From a virus (taxonomy: Duplodnaviria > Caudoviricetes): 64,000 bases of DNA. The notes under the pieces are model-generated. The model was not told the DNA's origin and searched no databases. It saw only the letters and a list, made by a program, of their open reading frames with translations. The DNA lies in IMG/VR virus record IMGVR_UViG_3300023053_000001, positions 96,001 through 160,000 of that record; one strand, written 5' to 3'. The position numbers were made by a program, and so were the translations under genes. Positions 1,503-24,237 of the stretch are shown here, one piece after another (positions within the stretch are counted from its first letter, which is position 1; each line of letters opens with the position of its first letter).

Positions 1503-3731
1503 ATGTGGAACCATCAGAACAAGCAGCGCAGCGCGCACACTGCTTTCGCGTCCAATGTCAAGTCCCTGACCGGCCAGGCCGGCTCCGCCCTGGTCAACGC
1601 CGATGACACCGCCGGCCTGCTCTCGTTCGAGTCGATGTCCGGCGAACGCCAGGAAAGCGTCAAGCAGACCCTGAGCGACGTCCAGTCCAAGATGAAGGGC
1701 TTCCTCTCCGGCATGGTCGGCGACGCCGGCCTCGGTTTCGAAGGCTTCGGCGGCAAGACCCCGGCCGAGCAGGACGCCCGTCTGGACATCGCTGCCCAGG
1801 CAGCCGCCGTGGTCGTGATGGCCGCCGGTGACGTCACCGGTTACGCCCGCAAGGCCTACACCGTCGAGCAGCACGAGAAGGGCGTCAACCGCCTGATCGG
1901 CTTCGACAGCGCCGGCACCGACCACCGCCTGGAGACCGCCTTCGAGGCGTTCGACAGCAAGGAACTGACCAACCACCTGCCGTACTCGGCCACCTTCGCA
2001 GCCTTCGGCTCGCGCCAGGACGAGTTCTGCGAAACCTTCTTCAACACCGCGGTCGTGACCCCGGACCAGGCCGGCCTGGACATCGAGATCACCATCCCGA
2101 AGGTGTTCACCAACAGCACCCACCCGACCAACGGCAACCCGACCAACTTCGACAAGAAGAACCTGATCGACGCCGTGGTGGACGCCTCCATCCTGAAGGA
2201 TCACGCCACCCGCCTGATCCCGCATGCCAACCCGGACAACAGCAACGCCGACAAGTTCGTGCCGGTGGCCAACCACGCCAGCGTGTTCGAGCGTCAGCAG
2301 GGCTTCGACATCCCGACCCGTCCGCTGAAGGCCGGCGTCGACATCGGCCTGATCGGCGTTGCCGCGTACGCCCCGATCCTGGCTGGCGGCGTGCTGTCCA
2401 ACACCGACGCCGTCGATGCTTCGATCGAGCTGGAATCGGTGTGGCTGGCCTTCGACGCCACCACCCCGGCGATCGGCTTCGACACCAGCTACATGCCGCG
2501 CAACCGCTTCACCAAGACCGTGGAAGGCAACTTCAAGGCCATGCAGCTGACCTTCAGCTCGCGTGACCTGGTCATCGATGGCACGAAGAAGAACTCGGCC
2601 AACCTGGTGCCGGCGCAGTTCCAGGCGATCATCGACAACGAGTGGAAGGTCTACCTGAAGGTCCAGGTGCACGGCGAGTTCAACGTCGAGTTCGGCTCGG
2701 TGAACCTGACCGGCTTCCCGGTCAAGGTCGACCTGATCCAGACCAAGGCTGGCGTGAGCATCGGCCTGACCGACGGCGTGGGCAAGACCCTGGTCGACGC
2801 CCTGGAAGAGCTGTACGTGGCCGGCTACACCCTGAAGGCCAACCGTACCAACTCGAACCTGCGTACCCGCGGCCACGTGGTCGACGTCACCGTCGAGCGC
2901 GAGCGTCACACCCTGCCCCTGGGTTCGCCGATCACCTTCCCGAGCCCGGTGCATGAAACCAATCGCGATGGCGACATCAAGATTGCGATCAACGCATCGC
3001 GCATCCGCAACAGCAACCTGGGCGTCACCGTCCTGCTGACCTACGCGGATACCCTGGAGAAGGTCGTCAAGGGTCCGAAGCGCGACGACGGCGTCGTGCC
3101 GGCCATCGCCGGTGCCGCCCGCTGGGTGGTGCAGCCGTGGTTCGAGCGTCGCAAGCTCGACGTCTCGGCCAGCATGACCTCCGAGAAGTCGATCGAACGT
3201 GCCGGCGACATCGCGCTGACCCTGGTCAACGCCATCCGCGACATGGCCTACCGCGCCTACCGCGACTCGCGCTACCAGGCTGCCCTGGACGCCGCGTCGC
3301 AGGGTTCGGGTGAGAAGCCGACCCTGATCATCGGTACCGACAGCATCATCGAGCGTCACCTGATGCTGGCCGGCGACGACCGTACCTTCGGTACCGTCTT
3401 CGAGAAGTTCAAGATCGTCTCCTCGCAGGACAGCCGCGTCTACGGCAAGATCTTCATCACCTTCAGCCGCGGTTCCAGCGATCCGTCCGACGTCCTGTCG
3501 TTCGGTACCCACGCCTGGATGCCGGAACTGACCGGTGCTCTGCCGATCAACCGTGCTGGCGCGACCTACCACGAAGCGATGGTGCAGCCGCGCAACCTGC
3601 ACGTGCCGAAGCTGCCGATCCTGGGCATCATCGAAGTCGCCGGTCTGTCGAAGGCGCTGGTCGAGAAGACCCCGGTCCTCATGGTCGGCCCGTCCGACAT
3701 CGTCAACCCGTGGCTGCCGGTCGTTCCGTGA
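1503..3731 (+). CDS. Major capsid protein (phiKZ gp120-like)
   Basis: 742 aa with extreme GC3 bias (high expression) and an AAGGA RBS. Recognisable segments include SFES/AFEAF, QDEFCETFF, TNSNLRTRG and MVQPRNLHVPKLPILG. It lies between DnaB and an RNAP subunit and is followed by a hairpin. Confidence 0.92.
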   Translation: MWNHQNKQRSAHTAFASNVKSLTGQAGSALVNADDTAGLLSFESMSGERQESVKQTLSDVQSKMKGFLSGMVGDAGLGFEGFGGKTPAEQDARLDIAAQAAAVVVMAAGDVTGYARKAYTVEQHEKGVNRLIGFDSAGTDHRLETAFEAFDSKELTNHLPYSATFAAFGSRQDEFCETFFNTAVVTPDQAGLDIEITIPKVFTNSTHPTNGNPTNFDKKNLIDAVVDASILKDHATRLIPHANPDNSNADKFVPVANHASVFERQQGFDIPTRPLKAGVDIGLIGVAAYAPILAGGVLSNTDAVDASIELESVWLAFDATTPAIGFDTSYMPRNRFTKTVEGNFKAMQLTFSSRDLVIDGTKKNSANLVPAQFQAIIDNEWKVYLKVQVHGEFNVEFGSVNLTGFPVKVDLIQTKAGVSIGLTDGVGKTLVDALEELYVAGYTLKANRTNSNLRTRGHVVDVTVERERHTLPLGSPITFPSPVHETNRDGDIKIAINASRIRNSNLGVTVLLTYADTLEKVVKGPKRDDGVVPAIAGAARWVVQPWFERRKLDVSASMTSEKSIERAGDIALTLVNAIRDMAYRAYRDSRYQAALDAASQGSGEKPTLIIGTDSIIERHLMLAGDDRTFGTVFEKFKIVSSQDSRVYGKIFITFSRGSSDPSDVLSFGTHAWMPELTGALPINRAGATYHEAMVQPRNLHVPKLPILGIIEVAGLSKALVEKTPVLMVGPSDIVNPWLPVVP

Positions 3732-3832
3732 AAACGCGAACGTCTCGCCGAGGTGGTTGCTAACACCGTACTGCCGGGGCTTACGTACCCGTAAGGAAAG
3801 TGAAAGCACATCTCACGGATGACGTGTAACAA

Positions 3833-3871
3833 GCATAGGCCCACACCCCTCCGGGGGTGTGGGCTTTATGC
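3833..3871. terminator. GCATA...TATGC hairpin (putative terminator) after the capsid gene
   Basis: GCCCACACCCC/GGGGTGTGGGC stem flanked by GCATA and TTTATGC. Confidence 0.75.
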
Positions 3872-3944
3872 CGTCTATTTGAAAGGTATTTCAGACATAC
3901 ATCATCCAAGAGTAACTCCTGAAAGTGCAACAACGGTACTCACC

Positions 3945-12036: not shown

Positions 12037-12086
12037 GGAAACTCCTTCAAACCTTTTTCATTAACGTTGTCATGGGAGGCCGCCTC

Positions 12087-14435
12087 GTGTCTCAGGCGCA
12101 ATACAACATTTACCGCAAGAACGTGATGGCGCTGGTGCGGTCGCTGGTCTTTAAGTACAGCGCCACAGCCGATGCGATCAATGCGGCGCAGGAGAGCCTC
12201 GGCCGTAGGGTCAACATGGCGGACCCCGCCAGTTGGAAATACTACATGAATCTGAACGGTCAGTACCACGGTACTGATCGGAAGATGACGGTCATCTCTC
12301 TGGACACGCTGCAAACCATCGAGTTCACCAAGGAGACGCTTGCCGAGCACCTGACCACGTTGAGTGAGTACCGGTCTTCGGATAACAAGCGTTACTACAA
12401 CGCGCTGGTCGATCGTTACCCGGATCAGGAAATCCTGATCCAAGGCATCCTCAATCCGGTGGACATTGCCAAGGCAATTGCTGCTAAGGACGGAGAGATT
12501 CTCTACTATGACCCGACCCTGGTCGAGGAGAACGAAACCAACCTGATTCCCAAGCTCAGCCAGTGGCTGCGCCTGCAGATCCAGCGTTGGAACGTGCCTG
12601 CGTACACGGTTGTCGATGACCTTTATGCCGGCGTCATGCTGGCAAATGTGGTCTCACTTTTGCCGATCACAGTGGAAAACCTGCGATTGGCAAACTGTCA
12701 TACTCTCTATGCGCACAGCTACCACATCCGTGAATTCTTGGCCAGTAACGGTCGTCTGGACTACTATGTCGACTACCTGACCAAGAAGCAGATGCTCTGG
12801 CTGTACCGCAATGCGCGCTACCTGCGACGCAACGCAGGCATGCGGGAAACCTTTGAAGTTTTGATGCAAAACATCCTGACCGATCGAGGGTTGCCGTTGG
12901 CCGAATGGCGTATGCGCCATAACGTAAAAGATCTCGCTGAAAATGTACGCGCCTTGCCGGAGTTCTCGCGCAAGCCGCTGAATCTGGAGTACAGTAGCGC
13001 CGGTAGCGATACCCGCTCGATCCAGACCATGCTCGACCGCGAAGTGGATGAGGCCCCGGACAATCTGTTCGTCCAGGACCAAGCGGAAGTGGACATGGAA
13101 AGCGAGATGGCTAACTCGATCACGAACCGACTGCGCACCAAGGTGCTCGAATCGTCGATTCTGGATCTGACTGACGCCTCACCCTTTACGCTGGCTGACA
13201 ACCTGCTCAACCATTGGCTGTACCTGTCCAACCAAGGCCGGTACAACTCGGTGGTCACCGTGGACAACCCCAAGACGGGTGGTCAGATCTCGTTGACCAT
13301 GGAGGAAGCCTTCTTGGTGTTCCTGTACGCTTACAACCTCTCGGTAGGGATTGAGCTGAAGGAACTGCCCTTGCTGCAGGCCATGAATGTGCGACGCTTG
13401 CCGTTGCCCACCGTGGCTCAGGTGCACAGCATCGTCGACCCCAATCTGGTACCGCGTTCGATCATCGAGCAAATGATGAACGGCATGGTGCCGCTGACCA
13501 CGTACATCTCCATCCCGGCCTTCTACGAGACCGTGGTGAAGATCCACAGTGAGAAGCTGAATCAGCGTCTGATCTACTCCAACGTCGAACACTACCTGGC
13601 CCGCGGTCAGGCAGAAGCGGCGATGCGTTACCTCTACGGTGACTATCCGATCCAGATCGGTAAGAGTAGTGGGTTCACTACTTACACGCAGTGGTTCACC
13701 GATAAGGGTCTGGATGTCCCCACCTACACCATGCTCGAAGCGGACCTGCTGGCCAATCAGCTGTATGCGCGTTGCACTGGCCAGAACCTGAAGGTTGCTC
13801 GCAGCCTGAAGGAACTCCAGGCGGCCATGCTGCGTTTGATGAAGCAGCTGTCTTCGTACTCGATCCAGTTCCTGCAGTCGATCAACTCCAACCCCATCTC
13901 GGTGGTGGAATGGCCCTTGATCCGACCCGGCGATCACACCGGTTATGTGCGCCACGCCGATTACATCCAGACCATCGACATTGACCTGCAGTCCACGCGC
14001 ACGCGTCGCCGCAGTTTGTTGCCGATTGACTTGGCTGAAATCTCGGCCGGGTTGGAATCCAATCTCTTCTGGCGCAGTGATGCGTGCTTGGACATTGGAC
14101 TGGACGTGGAGAAGGCGGGCAATAGCAGCCACACCATCCGCATGGTGCAAGGCTCCACTGACGTGCTGTCTGTACGCAATAACTTCCCTGAGTTGGGCCC
14201 GGATACGCCCATTCTGTCCAGCTACGATTACGTGGCTCCCGGCAGCAATGCGCTGTCCACGGCGTTTGAATTCTTGGACTCCCCGCACTACCGGTTGGAC
14301 GACGCCGATCGTACCGCGGTGGCTGCACGCTACGCTGCCTACGCAGATAGCAAGGGTCCGTTCAAGCGCATGCTGATCGATGTTGCACCGATCATGCGAC
14401 TGCCCGGTCTTACCATCAACCTTCTGCAAGGATAA
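12087..14435 (+). CDS. Virion structural protein (phiKZ gp128-like, probable baseplate)
   Basis: GTG start after GGGAGG (ORF track start 12072). Motifs WKYYMNLNGQYH, SYHIREFLASNGRLD, LTKKQMLWLYRN and LKQLSSYSIQF. Confidence 0.75.
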   Translation: MSQAQYNIYRKNVMALVRSLVFKYSATADAINAAQESLGRRVNMADPASWKYYMNLNGQYHGTDRKMTVISLDTLQTIEFTKETLAEHLTTLSEYRSSDNKRYYNALVDRYPDQEILIQGILNPVDIAKAIAAKDGEILYYDPTLVEENETNLIPKLSQWLRLQIQRWNVPAYTVVDDLYAGVMLANVVSLLPITVENLRLANCHTLYAHSYHIREFLASNGRLDYYVDYLTKKQMLWLYRNARYLRRNAGMRETFEVLMQNILTDRGLPLAEWRMRHNVKDLAENVRALPEFSRKPLNLEYSSAGSDTRSIQTMLDREVDEAPDNLFVQDQAEVDMESEMANSITNRLRTKVLESSILDLTDASPFTLADNLLNHWLYLSNQGRYNSVVTVDNPKTGGQISLTMEEAFLVFLYAYNLSVGIELKELPLLQAMNVRRLPLPTVAQVHSIVDPNLVPRSIIEQMMNGMVPLTTYISIPAFYETVVKIHSEKLNQRLIYSNVEHYLARGQAEAAMRYLYGDYPIQIGKSSGFTTYTQWFTDKGLDVPTYTMLEADLLANQLYARCTGQNLKVARSLKELQAAMLRLMKQLSSYSIQFLQSINSNPISVVEWPLIRPGDHTGYVRHADYIQTIDIDLQSTRTRRRSLLPIDLAEISAGLESNLFWRSDACLDIGLDVEKAGNSSHTIRMVQGSTDVLSVRNNFPELGPDTPILSSYDYVAPGSNALSTAFEFLDSPHYRLDDADRTAVAARYAAYADSKGPFKRMLIDVAPIMRLPGLTINLLQG

Positions 14436-14441
14436 GTCCCC

Positions 14442-14918
14442 ATGAGTCAGTCCCTGCGATTGCTGGGCTTGCCGATCAAGACGGCCCACCAAAGCATGGT
14501 CGCTGAAGCGTTGACGGATAGTGACAATGTGAATCTGCTCCAGATCGGCGACCCGTTTACCCGTGGAGACGGGCGGGTCGGCCTTCTGGTGTCTGTTGCC
14601 GATGAAGCTTACGACGACCCGGACATGAAGTGGTATGGGACCGTCGACTTCTCCGTGCGCAAAATGCCACTGGAGGAGTTTTTTGCCGGCATCACGCTGA
14701 AGATCAAACTGCCGGCCACCCCGGCCGGCGGTCTCAACACCAACACCGATGACGTGGTGGATAAGTTGAGTGAGATCTTCGGTATTCGCTTTGACCCCGT
14801 CGACTATTTCAGCGATGCCATCGTTTCTGCCGGCTCTGCCGATTACATGCTCCGTACCACGGTCGTCAGTCCGCGCTGGTCGGGGCAGGTCATGGTTCAG
14901 ATTTATCCTGACGTGTAA
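14442..14918 (+). CDS. Small virion/baseplate protein sharing a domain with the N-termini of the two downstream giant tail proteins
   Basis: 158 aa. The segment GTVDFSVRKMPLEEFF...LSEIFGIRFDPVDY...SPRWSGQV resembles the repeated N-terminal module of the 14930 and 19162 genes. Confidence 0.65.
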   Translation: MSQSLRLLGLPIKTAHQSMVAEALTDSDNVNLLQIGDPFTRGDGRVGLLVSVADEAYDDPDMKWYGTVDFSVRKMPLEEFFAGITLKIKLPATPAGGLNTNTDDVVDKLSEIFGIRFDPVDYFSDAIVSAGSADYMLRTTVVSPRWSGQVMVQIYPDV

Positions 14919-14929
14919 GGACCAAGACC

Positions 14930-17900
14930 ATGGCCGATAAAGAAACCAAATACCTGAAAACCCTCAAGCCGAAAGACGCGCTGAGCGTCATGTTGACCGA
15001 GGCCAACCACCTGCGTTACCCGCTGTACGATCTGGTGCCCAGTCTGCCGCGTAAAGTGGCCGGCACCCGCACACAGGTCGACCTCAAGGCGCGTGACCAG
15101 GTGGCCAAGGATGACTTCTATCCTTACACCGGTGAGGTCAAGGACTTCACGTTCAACCGCGTGGACCTCAAGCAGGAATACGGCGGTAAGATGGAAGGCT
15201 TCCGGCTGACCCTGCCCAGCTCTACCAAGGAACTGACCGATGAACTGACCCGGCGCTTCGGCACCGAGTTTGAAATCGATGACGTGGTCTTTGAGACCAT
15301 CCATTCGCGCAACTCGGTCCCGTACACGCTCAAGGCCAAGGTGGAATCCCTGCGCTTTGTGGGTCAGGTCGACTTTGTCCTGTCTGACGTGCGCGATCTT
15401 TCCGAGATTGCTCGCGACAGTCTGGGCAATCCGGCCTACACCAAGTTCATGGCCGAACTGCCGCTGGCCTCGCCGTATGCGAATGCCACCGGCTGGATGG
15501 ATCGACTCAACAGTCTGTGGCCGGGCAGTGATGCACAAACCCAGGCGGAGTTCTTGAACCTGTTCAAGGGCACGATCGCTCCGTTGAATGTCCACGCCAA
15601 ACTGGTCAGTCCCTCCCCGTGGGTGATCTCACCCGCGCCGGCACCGTTCAACCTGTACAACGCACAGCTGGTGACCCAAGACGCAGGTGTGGTGAACTAC
15701 CCTGCATTGGCCAACTCGAAGCTGAACCACGTCGCTGAGTTTGCTCTGTCCAAGGAGTATTGTACCAACATCTCCGAGGCCCGGGCCCTGCTGTGGTATG
15801 CCGATGAGGAAAGCAAGGACACCCAGATCCGCATGACCCCACGACTGCGTCAAAGCGGGACGCTCAATACCACCGATGCGACTGCTTACGCCGAATGGCT
15901 GGGTACGCTCAAGGTATCGGATGTGATCACCGCCTCGCCTCACGCGTCGATGACGATGGAGCCGGGCGTGAACTGGACCGTGGGTACGACTAAGTCCCCA
16001 ACGAACCTCTACGGGGCTGTGGTGCAGTATAACGGCCTGCGTCGTGGGCAGGACAGCACCAGCATCTATAACGACCTCACGCATGTACTGGTGGTGTCGA
16101 TGGATGAACGCTACAATAGCCTGTGGCGCGGCAACCTGTCCTTCTTCTACAGTGAAGCGGCGGTCCAGCCCAAGGGCTTTACCGTGGAAGTCTTCCGTGG
16201 CAGTAAGGTGGGTGAAACCATCACGCTGATCCCGCAGGAGACGCCGGAATGGATGAAGCACGGCAACCCGGTAGTGGGTGACACCACCCGTCCGGGCGGT
16301 AAGGTGACGCTGGATGGTTCCAGCTACCTGCAAGCTGCTGTGCATGAGGCCTTCAACTTTGGCACTGACGACTTCACCTTCGAGTTCACGGTGGAGTTTG
16401 CCAATCTGCCAGCCACCATTGCGGTGGGTCTGGTGGGTACGGCCAATGTGCAGCTGGGTGATGAGAACACGGGCCTGGTCTACATGTACGGTGCTGAACC
16501 GAGTCTGCCGCCAGGCTATGCAGGCACGTTCCTGTTTGGCACTACCGATGTGGGCCTGAATGCACTGACCTCTGAGCGGGTTCTGACCGCCGGTCGGACC
16601 AAGGTGTCCATCACCCGTCGCAATGGGTCGATGTTCCACCTGTTCTACAACGAACAGCAGTCTGGTCAGGGTAACGGCTTCGTCGACCCGGGCGCGGTTG
16701 TGAATCTGGCCAAGGCCGATGGCGTGACCATCGGTGCGATTACCTCCAGTTCGGATATTGCCAAGTTCACCGGTGAGATTTCGGACATGCGTATCATCAA
16801 GGGTCTGGCGCTGTACGAGCCGGCTCCGCGGATCTACTTCGCTGACGCCAATGGTTCGGAGACCGACGATGGTCGCACGTTGTATGAAAACGGTACGTTG
16901 GATCTGACGGTCATCATCGATCCGCCGTTGTCGCAAGCCCGCACTGTCCAGCTCAGCTTCACTGGCGATGCGCGGGTGGGCCGTGAGTACAACTTGGCAC
17001 AGGGTGGCACAAGCATCACGATACCGGCAGGTGCGGGGGAGTTTACCTTCACATTGCGCGGCATCGAGACCTCAGCCTTCAATGGCGCACGTTCGTTCAA
17101 TGTTGGCCTGACCTCCGGTGAAGGCTACATGGCCGCCGAACCGAAGACCGCGTACTGCACCTTGCGTGACGCAGTGTACATCGCACCGGTATGGCCGCGA
17201 CAAACGGCGGGCCGTGTGCGTTCGGGCCGTGATGTTGACATTGTGGTCGATCCGGGACTGTTCTACGTTCCGCAGTGGCAGCGTATGCTCGGCCAGCACG
17301 TGGATGGTCTGTACATGTATCGACATGCGCACGATGTAACGCGCATTGCAAACGGCGGGTTCATCCGCGGCCATGCGCCGTGGGCGGCCTATTCGCCTAA
17401 GCACGATGCGGTGCTGATCATGTACGCTGGTGGTGCTCGCATGATCTACGGACCGAAGACCAATTACCGCGTGGTGGAATCCACCTCCGGCTTGGCCTCG
17501 CGTGTATCGCCCACGTCGCCGATGTGGATTGCCGAGTGGGATGTGTTTGTGGCCTTTGACCTGTACACCAGTACGGTCATCAAATCGGCTGACGGTCTGA
17601 CGTGGTCGGCGATGCCGGCTATGGCAGGAGTGACCAACACCCAGAGTAACTGGATGTATGGCATGGTGTGGGACAAGGTCAATCAGCGCCTGTTGGTGTT
17701 GGGTAACTTGGGTCTGACATCCAACACCGGCAGTCAGGTGGGTGGTCGCATTCTCGCCTACACCGCGGTGGATCAAAGCGCTGCACCGACTGTCGTTGCT
17801 ACGGTTCCGTACTACCTGCTGGAGAACTGCTTCTTCTACTCCGAGGTATGGGGCAAGTACGTAATGACGGTCTGGGCCAACCTGCCGAACCTGGGCTTGA

Positions 17901-22100: not shown

Positions 22101-24237
22101 GCAGATCTCCATTGACGAAGGTGCGACGTGGACTGAACGTGGGGACTTCATCGGCTTCCCGAACAATCCGTGTAGTGCCACCGACGGTCAGGTAGTCATG
22201 ATCGGTGGCGCCGACGGCGGTAACCTCAACTTGGCCATGATCGACCAGACCGGTACGATCTACACACGTCAGCTGACCGGCGCTGGGGCAGGTACCGCGA
22301 TGGTGGCCATCGTGCCGCTGGAAACGGGTTGGATGGTCATCACGCAGGAAGGGAAGGTCTACACGTCCCCAGCTGCTGATCCGTTGAACTTCACTGCCGC
22401 TACGGGCTTTACCACGACCGAACAACCGTGGGCAGCCCGTGGTGACGGCACTCGTGTCATGCTGATTACCCGAGAAGGTTCGGTGTGGACCAACGCGGAC
22501 TCGGCACAAGGACCGTGGTCGAAGGTCGGCTCGCCTGTCACCAACACCACGCTCACTGACGTCATGCTGCGCGGTTTGCAGTACAAGCGTTACAACGTGG
22601 TCGATGACATCATCGGTACGGTCACTCCGACTGTGTGGTATCGTCTCAACGATGTGGCGCCCAACGGTATCGCCCGTGACTCCAGCGGTAATGGGTATCA
22701 TGGTGCGTACTCGGCTACCGCAGCGGTGGGCGTTGGATTGAGCAACACCGGTAAGTCACTGGCCCCGCAGGGCAACACAACTGAAGGTGGCTTCACGATC
22801 CCGGGTACGGGCTTTACGCTCAATGCAGCTAACCTGCAGAAGGGTCAGTTCTGGAACGTGTTCCTCAAGCGCGATCCGACCAAGGCCGTGGGTAGTCAGT
22901 ACCAGCACATCGTGGGCGACAGTCAGGACGCGGGCTTGGCTTGCGGCTTCCAGGTGTCCGGGGGTGATGAGGAAGTGCAGTGGAACATGAACCGTCAGCA
23001 CCAAGCGACGGCCTCGCGACCGCGTACGCCCATGCCTGACACTGAGGCGCACATGTACACGATCGTCTTCCGTCCGCAGGGCGGTCGTGATCGGTACAGC
23101 TCCTACGTGGACGGTAAGCGAGTGACGACGCTGCTGCCGAACTCTGGCATTGAACCGCTGACCAGTTCGGCCATGCTCTACGGCGGTAGTCCCAATCGCT
23201 ATAGTTCGTCGTATGGGAATGCGACGTTCATGTCCGAGCTGATGGCAGGTCCGGGCTGGGCCACCGATGCAGAGGAAGCCTCGGCCATTGCCAAGTTGTA
23301 CGATCTGCTCAAGCCAGCACCGGTTGTGTGGAATGACGACTGGACAGTGCGGAGCAACATCGGTGGCGGTCACACGGTAGGTTACAGTCCGAAGTTGAAC
23401 CGCATGGTGGTGGGTGACTTCACCTCGGCCAAGATCTCCTACAGTGACGATGTGGGTCAGACATGGACGGCTGCTACGGTTCCCAGCGGCACCAAGTTCG
23501 AACAGTTCATCTGGAGTGATCGACTGCAGCTGTTCATTGGTTGCGGTTTGTCCTCTGCGAAGGTCTGGTCGGTTGACGGTATCACCTGGACTCAAGGTGG
23601 CGGTAGTAGCGAGTACGGAGTCATCCTGATCGATACGCCCACCAAGGTGCTGGCTTTCAATAGCGATGGTGCGGCCATGGTCAGTCAGTCTGCTGACGGT
23701 AAAACTTGGAGTTGGAGCGGACAAAACATCCCCAGTGACATGGGGTCACCGAATGCGGTTGCCTACAGTCCCGAGGAAGATCGGGTCGTGGTGGCTTACA
23801 GTTCGGGGCGCTTCCTCTACAACAACAACGCCCTGCCGACCAACACTGTGTGGACGCGTACCGGTCAGTTCTCCGCAGCGATCAAGGACATTTTGTGGTC
23901 TTCGGATCATCAGGCGTTCTTTGCGTTGGTGGCGACCACTCCGGCGACGGTCATGCGGAGTGCCAACGGCCGTACGGACTGGGAGGTCGTATACACCGCA
24001 CCGGCTGCACACGGCGCTGCCGGCCGGATGGCGTACTCACTGCAGCACGGCTTCTTGCTGATCAATACCAGTAATACGCACATGGTTCGCGCTGATCGAG
24101 ATTGGGTGCAAACGTCTGCCAAGGCGGTGTCGCTGGATCTGGGTAGCGTCAACTATGGTCTGGAATGGATTCCTAAGCTGCAACGCTTTGTCCTCTCGGG
24201 TTATACCAAGACGGCATTGAGTAACAGCGCGCCATAA
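19162..24237 (+). CDS. Giant multidomain tail protein (duplicated phiKZ-type N-module, Ig-like, Calx-beta-like, propeller, LamG-like, BNR propeller)
   Basis: Start set at the ATG at 19162 (GGAG RBS). Tandem module YGIVMEEGEF/YGLLMEEGEF; Ig-like LRGGFVPY...GSYPFTARWRD; Calx-beta-like PEVTISAQPATVVEG; LamG-like VWYRLND...RDSSGNGYHG; Asp-boxes SIDEGATW, SDDVGQTW, SVDGITW, SADGKTW. Confidence 0.75.
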   Translation: MTTPTDSPARLTGQQYIDLYLDPILQELGIQRTHLDVSYFPAENRIHLKAREFATTGEPGNLINEKSFSYLRQDLTKLFPAPLLYKGEWPIKYRALAQYMLTTYGIVMEEGEFFVGNENVGMTPGMEDEIALTPPVTTGLITFFANDKSLRFATDSWFNIIVHDTVGRTRLNALYDVALRGDMNSLHTDADLISIDSTLFLSTGHACVRDLFRRLYGMVPDDSQVSWTYAVNGQYMRASMQARTTETGTGATGKYSGGAYMDYTRANLNTVIPMPLNIDGTNEMSYEVFSRFMLNSYGLLMEEGEFYLLSDPTKKPLVPGDIVKFVPDNGEADALVATVNSRRFQPGSSVNLKLIFPSLLVVLGKVPTVAPGETIAYRYQLRGGFVPYILLDTSGLPSTVTLSADGWLRGTAPSGSYPFTARWRDNAGTIAYLEDTILVETPELKAPLEVSLTIDHTPVVHYSVVAPKVLMTIKVPEDGAADGVVFSWGDTTDTNGPPYLMAVGPEMEYAGSGSSKWVRPEWVNWGLDLAEMGMDQSTVTTVPIQAWPNQKFRFSLRDDLPAGTYVIEVPVFALSLQPGRTHKLNMGFTNNDGNEELLALDVPIVAYQAPTLEWSTVPAQPMAATKIRINGKLTFPSPYVPDQMDRMDFDFQDTGAVIVSNITSDSPLVGRTGDVAEPSRLIFEGLTPFSPAGEYNFSFDLQLTEDMPYLETYYVGGIFYPGGQNRAPVSNTKQLQLTPQARPEVTISAQPATVVEGTSTVVRIDLNIPAPKALTIPISYEESTATLGVDFTGRDSVSIPEGYQSTTFVIDTVENNSQSSDSRIRVWAGGGPNHSVVGSGYTDINVAKAIVTSGWYITSDQKLYSAEFDKFASTVGKGVPMPLAQILSNEYIELNYSPSYAGAYWRPLGESAWRSIPLQAHGRCIVGTKIWSTAVSDAVQYLDTATGQTVQTTAARGNLLQGCKKLMVKYNASNNSWDTSQISIDEGATWTERGDFIGFPNNPCSATDGQVVMIGGADGGNLNLAMIDQTGTIYTRQLTGAGAGTAMVAIVPLETGWMVITQEGKVYTSPAADPLNFTAATGFTTTEQPWAARGDGTRVMLITREGSVWTNADSAQGPWSKVGSPVTNTTLTDVMLRGLQYKRYNVVDDIIGTVTPTVWYRLNDVAPNGIARDSSGNGYHGAYSATAAVGVGLSNTGKSLAPQGNTTEGGFTIPGTGFTLNAANLQKGQFWNVFLKRDPTKAVGSQYQHIVGDSQDAGLACGFQVSGGDEEVQWNMNRQHQATASRPRTPMPDTEAHMYTIVFRPQGGRDRYSSYVDGKRVTTLLPNSGIEPLTSSAMLYGGSPNRYSSSYGNATFMSELMAGPGWATDAEEASAIAKLYDLLKPAPVVWNDDWTVRSNIGGGHTVGYSPKLNRMVVGDFTSAKISYSDDVGQTWTAATVPSGTKFEQFIWSDRLQLFIGCGLSSAKVWSVDGITWTQGGGSSEYGVILIDTPTKVLAFNSDGAAMVSQSADGKTWSWSGQNIPSDMGSPNAVAYSPEEDRVVVAYSSGRFLYNNNALPTNTVWTRTGQFSAAIKDILWSSDHQAFFALVATTPATVMRSANGRTDWEVVYTAPAAHGAAGRMAYSLQHGFLLINTSNTHMVRADRDWVQTSAKAVSLDLGSVNYGLEWIPKLQRFVLSGYTKTALSNSAP

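Follow-up and report, generated by a model that had tools for sequence, protein, structure and literature searches.

Capsid isoforms made by recoding are textbook knowledge for two bacteriophages, Qbeta, in which a stop codon is read through, and T7, in which ribosomes change frame. In Qbeta (Allolevivirus), a small single-stranded RNA (ssRNA) phage, the coat gene ends in a leaky UGA that is occasionally read as Trp, which yields the C-extended minor capsid protein A1, present in few copies per virion; its extension of about 195 amino acids (aa) is a folded domain needed for infection. Minor C-extended capsid isoforms also occur in tailed phages with double-stranded DNA (dsDNA), namely T7 (10A/10B) and the Listeria phages PSA/A118, via a -1 or +1 frameshift. 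Our literature search found no published report of stop-codon readthrough in capsid genes of jumbo or other tailed dsDNA phages. Here we describe a candidate case behind the major capsid gene of a phiKZ-like jumbo phage. The DNA analysed (hereafter the window) is a stretch of 64,000 nucleotides (nt), bases 96001-160000 of a 268,458-bp IMG/VR virus record (IMGVR_UViG_3300023053_000001) with terminal repeats, 58.5% GC and soil origin. The capsid gene ends in TGA, and the same frame stays open behind it for 20 codons. We consider, with a probability of about 0.7, that these 60 nt are a genuine coding extension and that low-level readthrough of the UGA would produce a minor capsid isoform of 763 aa; a small share of the capsid subunits probably carries the extra readthrough tail.

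The capsid open reading frame (ORF) occupies positions 1503..3728 of the plus strand and encodes a major capsid protein of the phiKZ gp120 type, 742 aa in length. It belongs to Pfam family PF25620 (PhiKZ_MCP), which it matches over residues 97-719 with 620.6 bits against a cut-off of 27 (E 3e-186), and its match in the Protein Data Bank (PDB) is 8y6v. The ORF ends with CCG TGA at 3726-3731, followed on the same strand by 20 sense codons, KRERLAEVVANTVLPGLTYP, at 3732-3791 and by a second stop, TAA, at 3792-3794, exactly where the original prediction, made from the sequence of the window, had placed them. The Pro codon CCG, the UGA and the A at +4 (3726..3732, plus strand) form a candidate leaky stop context. 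The TGA at 3729-3731 is identical in eight independent contigs (L029-L035, L040) and in contigs of four further runs, which rules out a sequencing or assembly error. These four runs are RNA libraries, in whose contigs the region is present and identical; the long contigs may include DNA and carry no information on translation.

A search of 5.8 billion proteins returned capsid relatives with 83, 78, 74 and 60-64% identity over the C-terminal region (residues 400-742), corresponding to 70, 62, 60 and about 50% over the full length. Since the C-termini of 12 aligned relatives all end in NP[WY]LP plus 2-5 aa, the TGA marks the canonical end of the protein and not a recent truncation. It is moreover common to lineages with saturated synonymous sites. 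A recent nonsense change, which the original prediction had held out as an alternative to readthrough, is thereby rejected. The capsid protein aligns to phiKZ gp120 (PDB 8y6v) only up to gp120 residue 735 of 747; its final ~21 aa (KTPVLMVGPSDIVNPWLPVVP) fall outside this alignment and are thus the counterpart of the last part of the C-terminal arm in phiKZ.

The DNA behind the capsid gene of each relative was retrieved and compared. The extension is kept in frame in four lineages of the nearest clade, in all of which CCG TGA A is identical: the window itself; L036/L037, from the same 90% protein cluster as the window (KQRRLSEVIANNVLEGLTYP, with TGA as second stop at the same codon position as the window's TAA); L002, 83% identical to the window in the C-terminal region (KRRLAEVYPERDLDGLRLEQVQSGP, second stop TGA); and L038/L039, from the same 90% cluster as L002 (KRRLAEVYPNRDLDGLRLDQVQDGP, second stop TGA). 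The extensions of L002 and L038 differ from that of the window by a 3-nt indel. Between the window and L036 the extension shows 70% aa and 67% nt identity, with substitutions distributed over the three codon positions as 4:4:12 (hypergeometric p 0.0027) and with conservative aa changes (A/S, V/I, T/N, R/Q). The corresponding distribution is 2:1:6 for L002-L038 (p 0.033) and 6:6:9 for the contrast between the two clades (p 0.19); Fisher's method combines these three values to p 0.0012. The three pairwise p-values, including that of the distant FLC9-L017 pair described below, combine to about 2e-4 by hand calculation. Under a neutral simulation, an aa identity of at least 14/20 after 20 random substitutions has a probability of 4e-4. 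Base composition does not explain the third-position excess, because codon positions 1 and 3 of the extension are, by hand count, equally rich in GC.

Conservation starts at the first codon after the TGA, with no conserved ATG, GTG or TTG and hence no start codon of its own. Past the second stop of L036 about 26 nt are unalignable, as is the flanking spacer, and the position of the second stop is kept in window/L036, FLC9/L017 and RP12/FLC1-1B. The post-stop codons are thus under purifying selection at the protein level, which was the chief question that the original prediction had put to the relatives. More distant members of the group (L003, L005-L009) end their capsid genes with TAA, TGA-T or TGA-TAG, have no Pro at -1 and show unrelated post-stop sequence. 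Searches of IMG/VR for close relatives with exact peptide patterns gave no matches, nor did a DNA pattern of the stop context in viral_contigs and genome_contigs, and a metagenome scan added a single new fragment, with a TAA stop and no extension.

Distant capsid loci were screened from IMG/VR and from a phage collection. A similar extension of 15-18 codons stands behind TGA in distant phiKZ-like phages whose capsid proteins are only 31-36% identical to that of the window. Carriers among cultured phages are Burkholderia phage FLC9 (GTC TGA A, RTRLVEVTDLDGFKVYPG) and the Ralstonia phages FLC1-1B/FLC4-3B (CCG TGA G, AFRVTDLDGFHEYGS) and RP12/RP31 (CCG TGA A, RIGNTSPDGFNEFGA); those from IMG/VR are L083/L086 (TCG TGA A, RTRLVDVTDLGGFQIYSG), L087 (GTC TGA A, RTRLVEVNDLNGFTVWTG), L089 (GTC TGA A, RTRLVEVTDLDGFNVYPG) and L105 (CCT TGA A, SDSLFTKYKLDGFKRVDS). 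The distant extensions share R.RL.[ED]V and/or L.G[LF]..[YF] with that of the window. FLC9 and L017 have extensions of equal length and stop position, with substitutions distributed as 3:1:7 over the codon positions (p 0.023). In the FLC9 group, synonymous changes are found in the codons of invariant residues, and the variation is confined to three spaced positions. RP12 and FLC1-1B are saturated with nucleotide changes, yet the 15 codons, the stop position and the motif DGF.E[YF]G are kept. The second stop is polymorphic in one FLC9-like IMG/VR contig (L084), where CAG replaces TAG at the end of the extension and adds two codons (QP) before the next TGA.

The extension is linked to the UGA-A context. 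All 11 distinct extension sequences follow TGA, with A at +4 in ten and G in one, and Pro stands at -1 in 6/8 compared lineages (9/11 sequences listed). Stops at 77 IMG/VR capsid loci are TAA in 63 (82%), TGA in 13 and TAG in one; an extension lies behind 10/10 TGA-A stops and 0/3 TGA-T stops in this survey. Only one locus with a TAA or TAG stop (L091, out of 64) fits a loose form of the pattern, and it was treated as spurious for want of the other motif features. In a tree built from the 155 capsid residues preceding the tail, carriers adjoin TAA-ending non-carriers of the same terminal residue (the window clade and L003, the FLC9 group and L081-L082, RP12-FLC1-1B and RSF1-FLC4-4C).

In the public records of the cultured carriers the capsid coding sequence ends at the TGA, and the extension is unannotated. 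Tryptic peptides to be expected from the extension include IGNTSPDGFNEFGA (RP12/RP31), LVEVTDLDGFK (FLC9) and LAEVVANTVLPGLTYP (this phage). Liquid chromatography-tandem mass spectrometry of RP31 virions was matched only to phage open reading frames, among which the extension is not annotated (PMC5468394).

We also examined the extension against the 246 genes called in the genome. The in-frame run after a stop has a median of 21 codons and reaches at least 20 codons in 52% of these genes, so the 20-codon open frame, taken alone, is unremarkable and within chance. In terms of codon usage, which the original prediction had called typical of this phage, the extension scores 0.08 per codon, compared with -0.44 +/- 0.25 for open intergenic post-stop stretches (5% of which reach 0.08) and 0.36 +/- 0.22 for genic windows (9% of which fall below it). 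In codon usage and third-position GC it is therefore more gene-like than 95% of open intergenic stretches, and to this extent the description holds, but it scores below 91% of genic windows. UGA terminates 99/246 genes; TGA-A is the rarest TGA context (13/99), and the capsid stop is the sole Pro-TGA-A.

The original prediction had further asked whether the post-stop codons form part of the ORF in relatives, and here the answer is affirmative. In the nearest cultured relatives, Xanthomonas phages LucasX (...AGVANVYLDGLKYPTP) and RTH11 (...AGVNNVYLNGLKYPSI), the tail motif lies within the capsid ORF, directly before a TAA stop. It is also in the ORF of L060-L063, L128 and P0013/14 (...DGLTYP at the stop), and capsid tails of other lineages end in ...NPYMDGLTYP, ...NVYLDGLRYPTP and ...AAQVLDGLNANPAP. 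A profile of the relatives' tails, run against the six-frame translation of the genome, had its best match in the capsid's own tail and its second-best in the extension (E 0.06 over 12 aa); the extension thus repeats, behind the stop, the C-terminal tail motif of the family. A simple tandem duplication of the capsid tail was not adopted as its origin, as the tails of DUF7941 proteins match as well or better.

DUF7941 (PF25613) is the only Pfam match of the extension (positions 155-173, 12.8 bits, E 0.083), and a six-frame search with this family recovers the extension again at 10.3 bits; both scores lie below the cut-off of 27, so the extension resembles one segment of the family without belonging to it. 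Two short gp127-like (DUF7941) paralogues lie outside the window, at genome positions 22600-23130 (plus strand) and 78899-79546 (minus strand). Their tails show L[AS].V[IV].N.VL.GLTY, matching the extension at the protein level only, and end in ...DLAAVIVNNVLPGLTYE-LPA and ...PLSMVMANTVLSGLTYE-FKEEEEAEPA, each with 11/20 aa matching the extension. Gp127-like loci with the motif are also found at 14622-15772 in the window and at L140, L142, L137, L138 and L143-L145. The lineage-specific form of the motif co-varies between the DUF7941 paralogue and the extension, or the in-ORF capsid tail, in five genomes. RP12 has IGNTSPDGFNEFGA in the extension and IGNPDINGFNEYAA in the paralogue tail, and FLC1-1B has TDLDGFHEY and QNLDGFNEY, respectively; in the FLC9 group the extension reads VTDLDGF (FLC9) or VTDLGGF (IMG/VR genome G001) and the paralogue TTDLGGF or VTDLSGF, and in LucasX the in-ORF capsid tail LTSAGVANVYLDGLKYP is paired with the paralogue tail LTMAIANNQLNGLIYEP.

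The members of DUF7941 in phiKZ are gp127, gp126 and, weakly, gp143; gp131-135, also considered as its phiKZ relatives, were rejected on these matches. Gp127 is located in the outer baseplate star lobe (PMC13250141). PDB sequence searches with the two short paralogues returned nothing useful. The parallel may reflect a partner or structural element shared by head and baseplate proteins, and we treat it as a lead only. The likeness that the original prediction drew to the tail of the virion protein gene at 12072-14435 proved weak, given that L.G[LI] occurs in the last 20 aa in 5/246 genes against about 4 expected, and much closer parallels exist elsewhere in the genome. As a separate observation, six-frame DUF7941 matches run through an in-frame TGA on the minus strand of the FLC9 record (258193-258744) and of the LucasX record (237079-237531); these might be further readthrough candidates or overhang of the profile.

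The decoding route that we infer from these comparisons is as follows. Most ribosomes would stop at Pro-UGA-A and release the 742-aa capsid protein, while a minority would decode the UGA, most likely via near-cognate tRNA-Trp, and run on for 20 codons to the TAA. The product would be a 763-aa isoform ending in ...VVP-(W)-KRERLAEVVANTVLPGLTYP, whose added tail, with its N.VL.GLTYP, would re-create the C-terminal-arm motif L..V..N.VL.GL.YP that lies within the ORF in related phages. Near-cognate decoding is the simplest mechanism, because the genome encodes no suppressor tRNA, because no SECIS-like (selenocysteine insertion sequence) or shared structure is present, and because 99 other genes have UGA as their stop. 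A Pro at the C-terminus reportedly slows termination, an observation attributed to Hayes, Bose and Sauer in 2002. In Escherichia coli, UGA is the leakiest stop and the one most prone to error, with Trp as the residue usually inserted (PMC11126739), and UGAA is bound weakly by release factor 2 (PMC5373646). For this soil phage, the leaky-context argument from E. coli is an analogy only.

In terms of RNA structure, the window extension folds no better than shuffled sequences (z +0.49), and the extensions of L036, RP12 and FLC1-1B likewise have no unusual fold. The four nearest lineages give a weak consensus fold (-6.9 kcal/mol), an Rfam search gave no match, and no conserved or unusually stable SECIS-type hairpin lies directly 3' of the UGA in the window. 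The FLC9 group has a hairpin that is not present in the window's clade: the 3' half of its extension forms a stable stem of about 11 bp (L047:604-636, and the same place in L083; z -3.5). By hand comparison, one pair of this stem differs on both sides between FLC9 and L083: a D/G replacement together with a synonymous change in a Tyr codon turns A-U into G-C. This hairpin could stimulate readthrough or stabilise the transcript.

The place that the additional residues would take in the particle can be considered on the model of phiKZ. The last 20 residues of the phiKZ capsid protein form a C-terminal arm; six arms build a helix bundle with a pore of about 9 A at the centre of each hexamer, and in pentamers it takes the shape of a loop extending to the outer vertex protein gp244 (PMC11297242). 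By analogy, the 21 additional residues, carried by a small fraction of the subunits, would come out at the capsomer centre, a location compatible with tolerance of additional residues in a minority of subunits. The phiKZ model contains 1620 capsid chains, of which penton subunits would make up an estimated 3-4%, a share of the same order as typical UGA leakiness. The extension may serve as a docking peptide, as the original prediction had proposed. One could go further and suppose that UGA leakiness sets the dose of a specialised capsid subunit, such that a few percent of chains, near the penton share of about 3-4% in a T=27 shell, carry a second C-terminal arm, which would be used at pentons or at capsomer-centre pores and would either change the local conformation or dock a partner via a motif that co-evolves with the gp127-like baseplate family. 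We regard this extended scheme as rather unlikely. If it were true, head and tail proteins would have a short address peptide in common, dosed by recoding rather than by a separate gene.

Several explanations without readthrough of a leaky UGA have to be weighed against this reading. The stretch could be an untranslated relic, that is, a piece of capsid-tail sequence or the terminal part of a gp127-like (DUF7941) gene that was duplicated or captured behind the stop, lies in frame by chance and decays neutrally. A copying event is plausible given the resemblance to canonical capsid tails and DUF7941 tails, an open frame of this length is ordinary, sister lineages are without the extension, its codon usage is only intermediate, and the L002 form has drifted. 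Neutral decay, however, predicts equal change across codon positions, whereas three independent pairs show a third-position excess; the peptide is still recognisable across capsid lineages with no more than 31-35% identity, stop positions and lengths are maintained, the frame survives the 3-nt indel, and the element is tied exclusively to TGA-A in a survey where 82% of capsid genes use TAA. We therefore judge a relic to be unlikely. A non-coding RNA or DNA element that is merely ORF-like, such as a stabiliser in the 3' untranslated region or a regulatory site, would fit the FLC9-group hairpin with its one compensatory pair against L083, but not the unexceptional folds of the other extensions, the weak consensus fold and the lack of an Rfam match; nor does it predict third-position periodicity, a conserved second stop or an aa motif kept amid synonymous change, and we hold it to be very unlikely. 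Repeated gene conversion from DUF7941 paralogues, which would bring coding-like differences into an untranslated copy, is a shade less likely still. It is suggested by the co-variation between extension tails and the tails of short DUF7941 paralogues of the same genome, seen in four genomes. A blastn-short comparison of the extension with the paralogues of its own genome detected no DNA-level similarity, however, nucleotide identity is 58-70% in RP12, FLC1-1B and FLC9 and roughly 50-60% in the window's own genome, with synonymous differences, and the extension-specific R.RL.[ED]V after the stop is missing from the paralogues.

That the stop of the carriers is always UGA, never UAG or UAA, would also be expected if UGA were specifically recoded, as selenocysteine or under a reassigned code, and not leaky. 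Against this stand the lack of a conserved hairpin after the UGA and of an Rfam match, a tRNA repertoire consisting of tRNA-Leu(CAA), the use of UGA to end 99/246 genes, and the fact that the cultured carriers infect Burkholderia and Ralstonia, which are not known to depart from the standard genetic code; specific recoding is hardly credible on these grounds. The periodicity might finally be ascribed to an ORF on the minus strand (3566-3844), which has its third codon positions in common with the extension and whose frame is open both in the window and in L036. In L002 and L038 the corresponding frame is interrupted by stop codons within the extension, by which this explanation is contradicted and was rejected; the ORF would also begin within the terminator and share 165 nt with the capsid gene, and the plus-strand stops mark the exact end of the conserved island. 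We consider it next to impossible.

Readthrough of the UGA has points against it as well. We infer the translation of the extension from evolution only. No stimulatory RNA structure is shared among the carriers, and aragorn finds only tRNA-Leu(CAA) in the genome and no suppressor tRNA. In codon usage the extension ranks low among genes. Some close relatives, L003, L005 and L008 among them, are without the extension, which must therefore be dispensable in some lineages, and in L002/L038 it has diverged from the motif. With their short length of 15-25 codons, the extensions offer 9-20 substitutions for each pairwise test. Nevertheless, in-frame conservation, recurrence behind TGA in distant lineages and the in-ORF motif of relatives together support the readthrough interpretation of the original prediction.

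The capsid transcript is closed by an intrinsic terminator at 3838..3869 (plus strand), a hairpin of GGCCCACACCCC and GGGGTGTGGGC followed by a T-run, which is conserved in relatives with compensatory changes. The original prediction had placed this hairpin at 3833, about 100 nt from the TGA, and had taken the distance as unusual. The stem starts at 3838 and is indeed 106 nt past the TGA, but it lies 43 nt past the second stop; in relatives without the extension about 40-65 nt separate the stop from the hairpin, on a rough reading. Contigs of one RNA-library run (X24) break off at 3842 and restart at 3869, flanking the hairpin, while other runs have long contigs across it; this gap is a weak hint of a transcript end. 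The terminator is immediately followed by TTTATGCCGTC and, about 20 nt on, by an A/T-rich box similar to CA[GA]ACATA[CT]ATCAT before the next gene (3865-3912 in the window). Both are kept in all relatives, even distant ones (L002, L003, L005-L009, L047, L048, L050). This element resembles a phage promoter or a start signal for transcription, conserved and joined to the terminator.

If readthrough is real, the extension would be an unannotated virion component in a whole group of phiKZ-like phages. Several of these are already cultured, and their use in the biocontrol of Ralstonia and Burkholderia has been studied. The case would also illustrate, from nature, one way in which a giant T=27 shell with a single capsid gene may come by a minority subunit. 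Annotation pipelines and proteomic databases that end at the first UGA would miss this conserved protein sequence.

Among phiKZ-like phages there are three near parallels. The C-terminal arm of phiKZ gp120 (PDB 8y6v; PMC11297242) belongs to the same family, and the extension would lengthen its capsomer-centre bundle or penton loop; the phiKZ tail is short, however, and has no L.G[LF] motif in its aligned part. The capsid tails of LucasX and RTH11, with ...AGVANVYLDGLKYPTP clearly related to ...AEVVANTVLPGLTYP of the window, carry the motif on every subunit of a gene that ends in TAA, whereas here it stands behind UGA and would be substoichiometric. The DUF7941/gp127-like proteins of the baseplate periphery match the extension at profile positions ~154-176 (L[AS].V[IV].N.VL.GLTY), but they are other proteins at another location in the virion, and the shared motif is short and below the family cut-off. 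Among the recoded capsid genes, T7 10B and PSA/A118 resemble this locus in that recoding occurs at the 3' end of the capsid gene; they differ in that the extension described here lies in the zero frame behind a stop and has no slippery site, and thus is not of the frameshift type. Qbeta A1 is alike in having an in-frame extension behind a conserved UGA stop of the capsid gene that is kept as a stop. In contrast to A1, the present case concerns a 268-kb dsDNA jumbo phage with an HK97-fold capsid protein and would add no domain to the capsid protein but a tail of 15-25 aa that repeats a motif already used at the C-terminus of its relatives.

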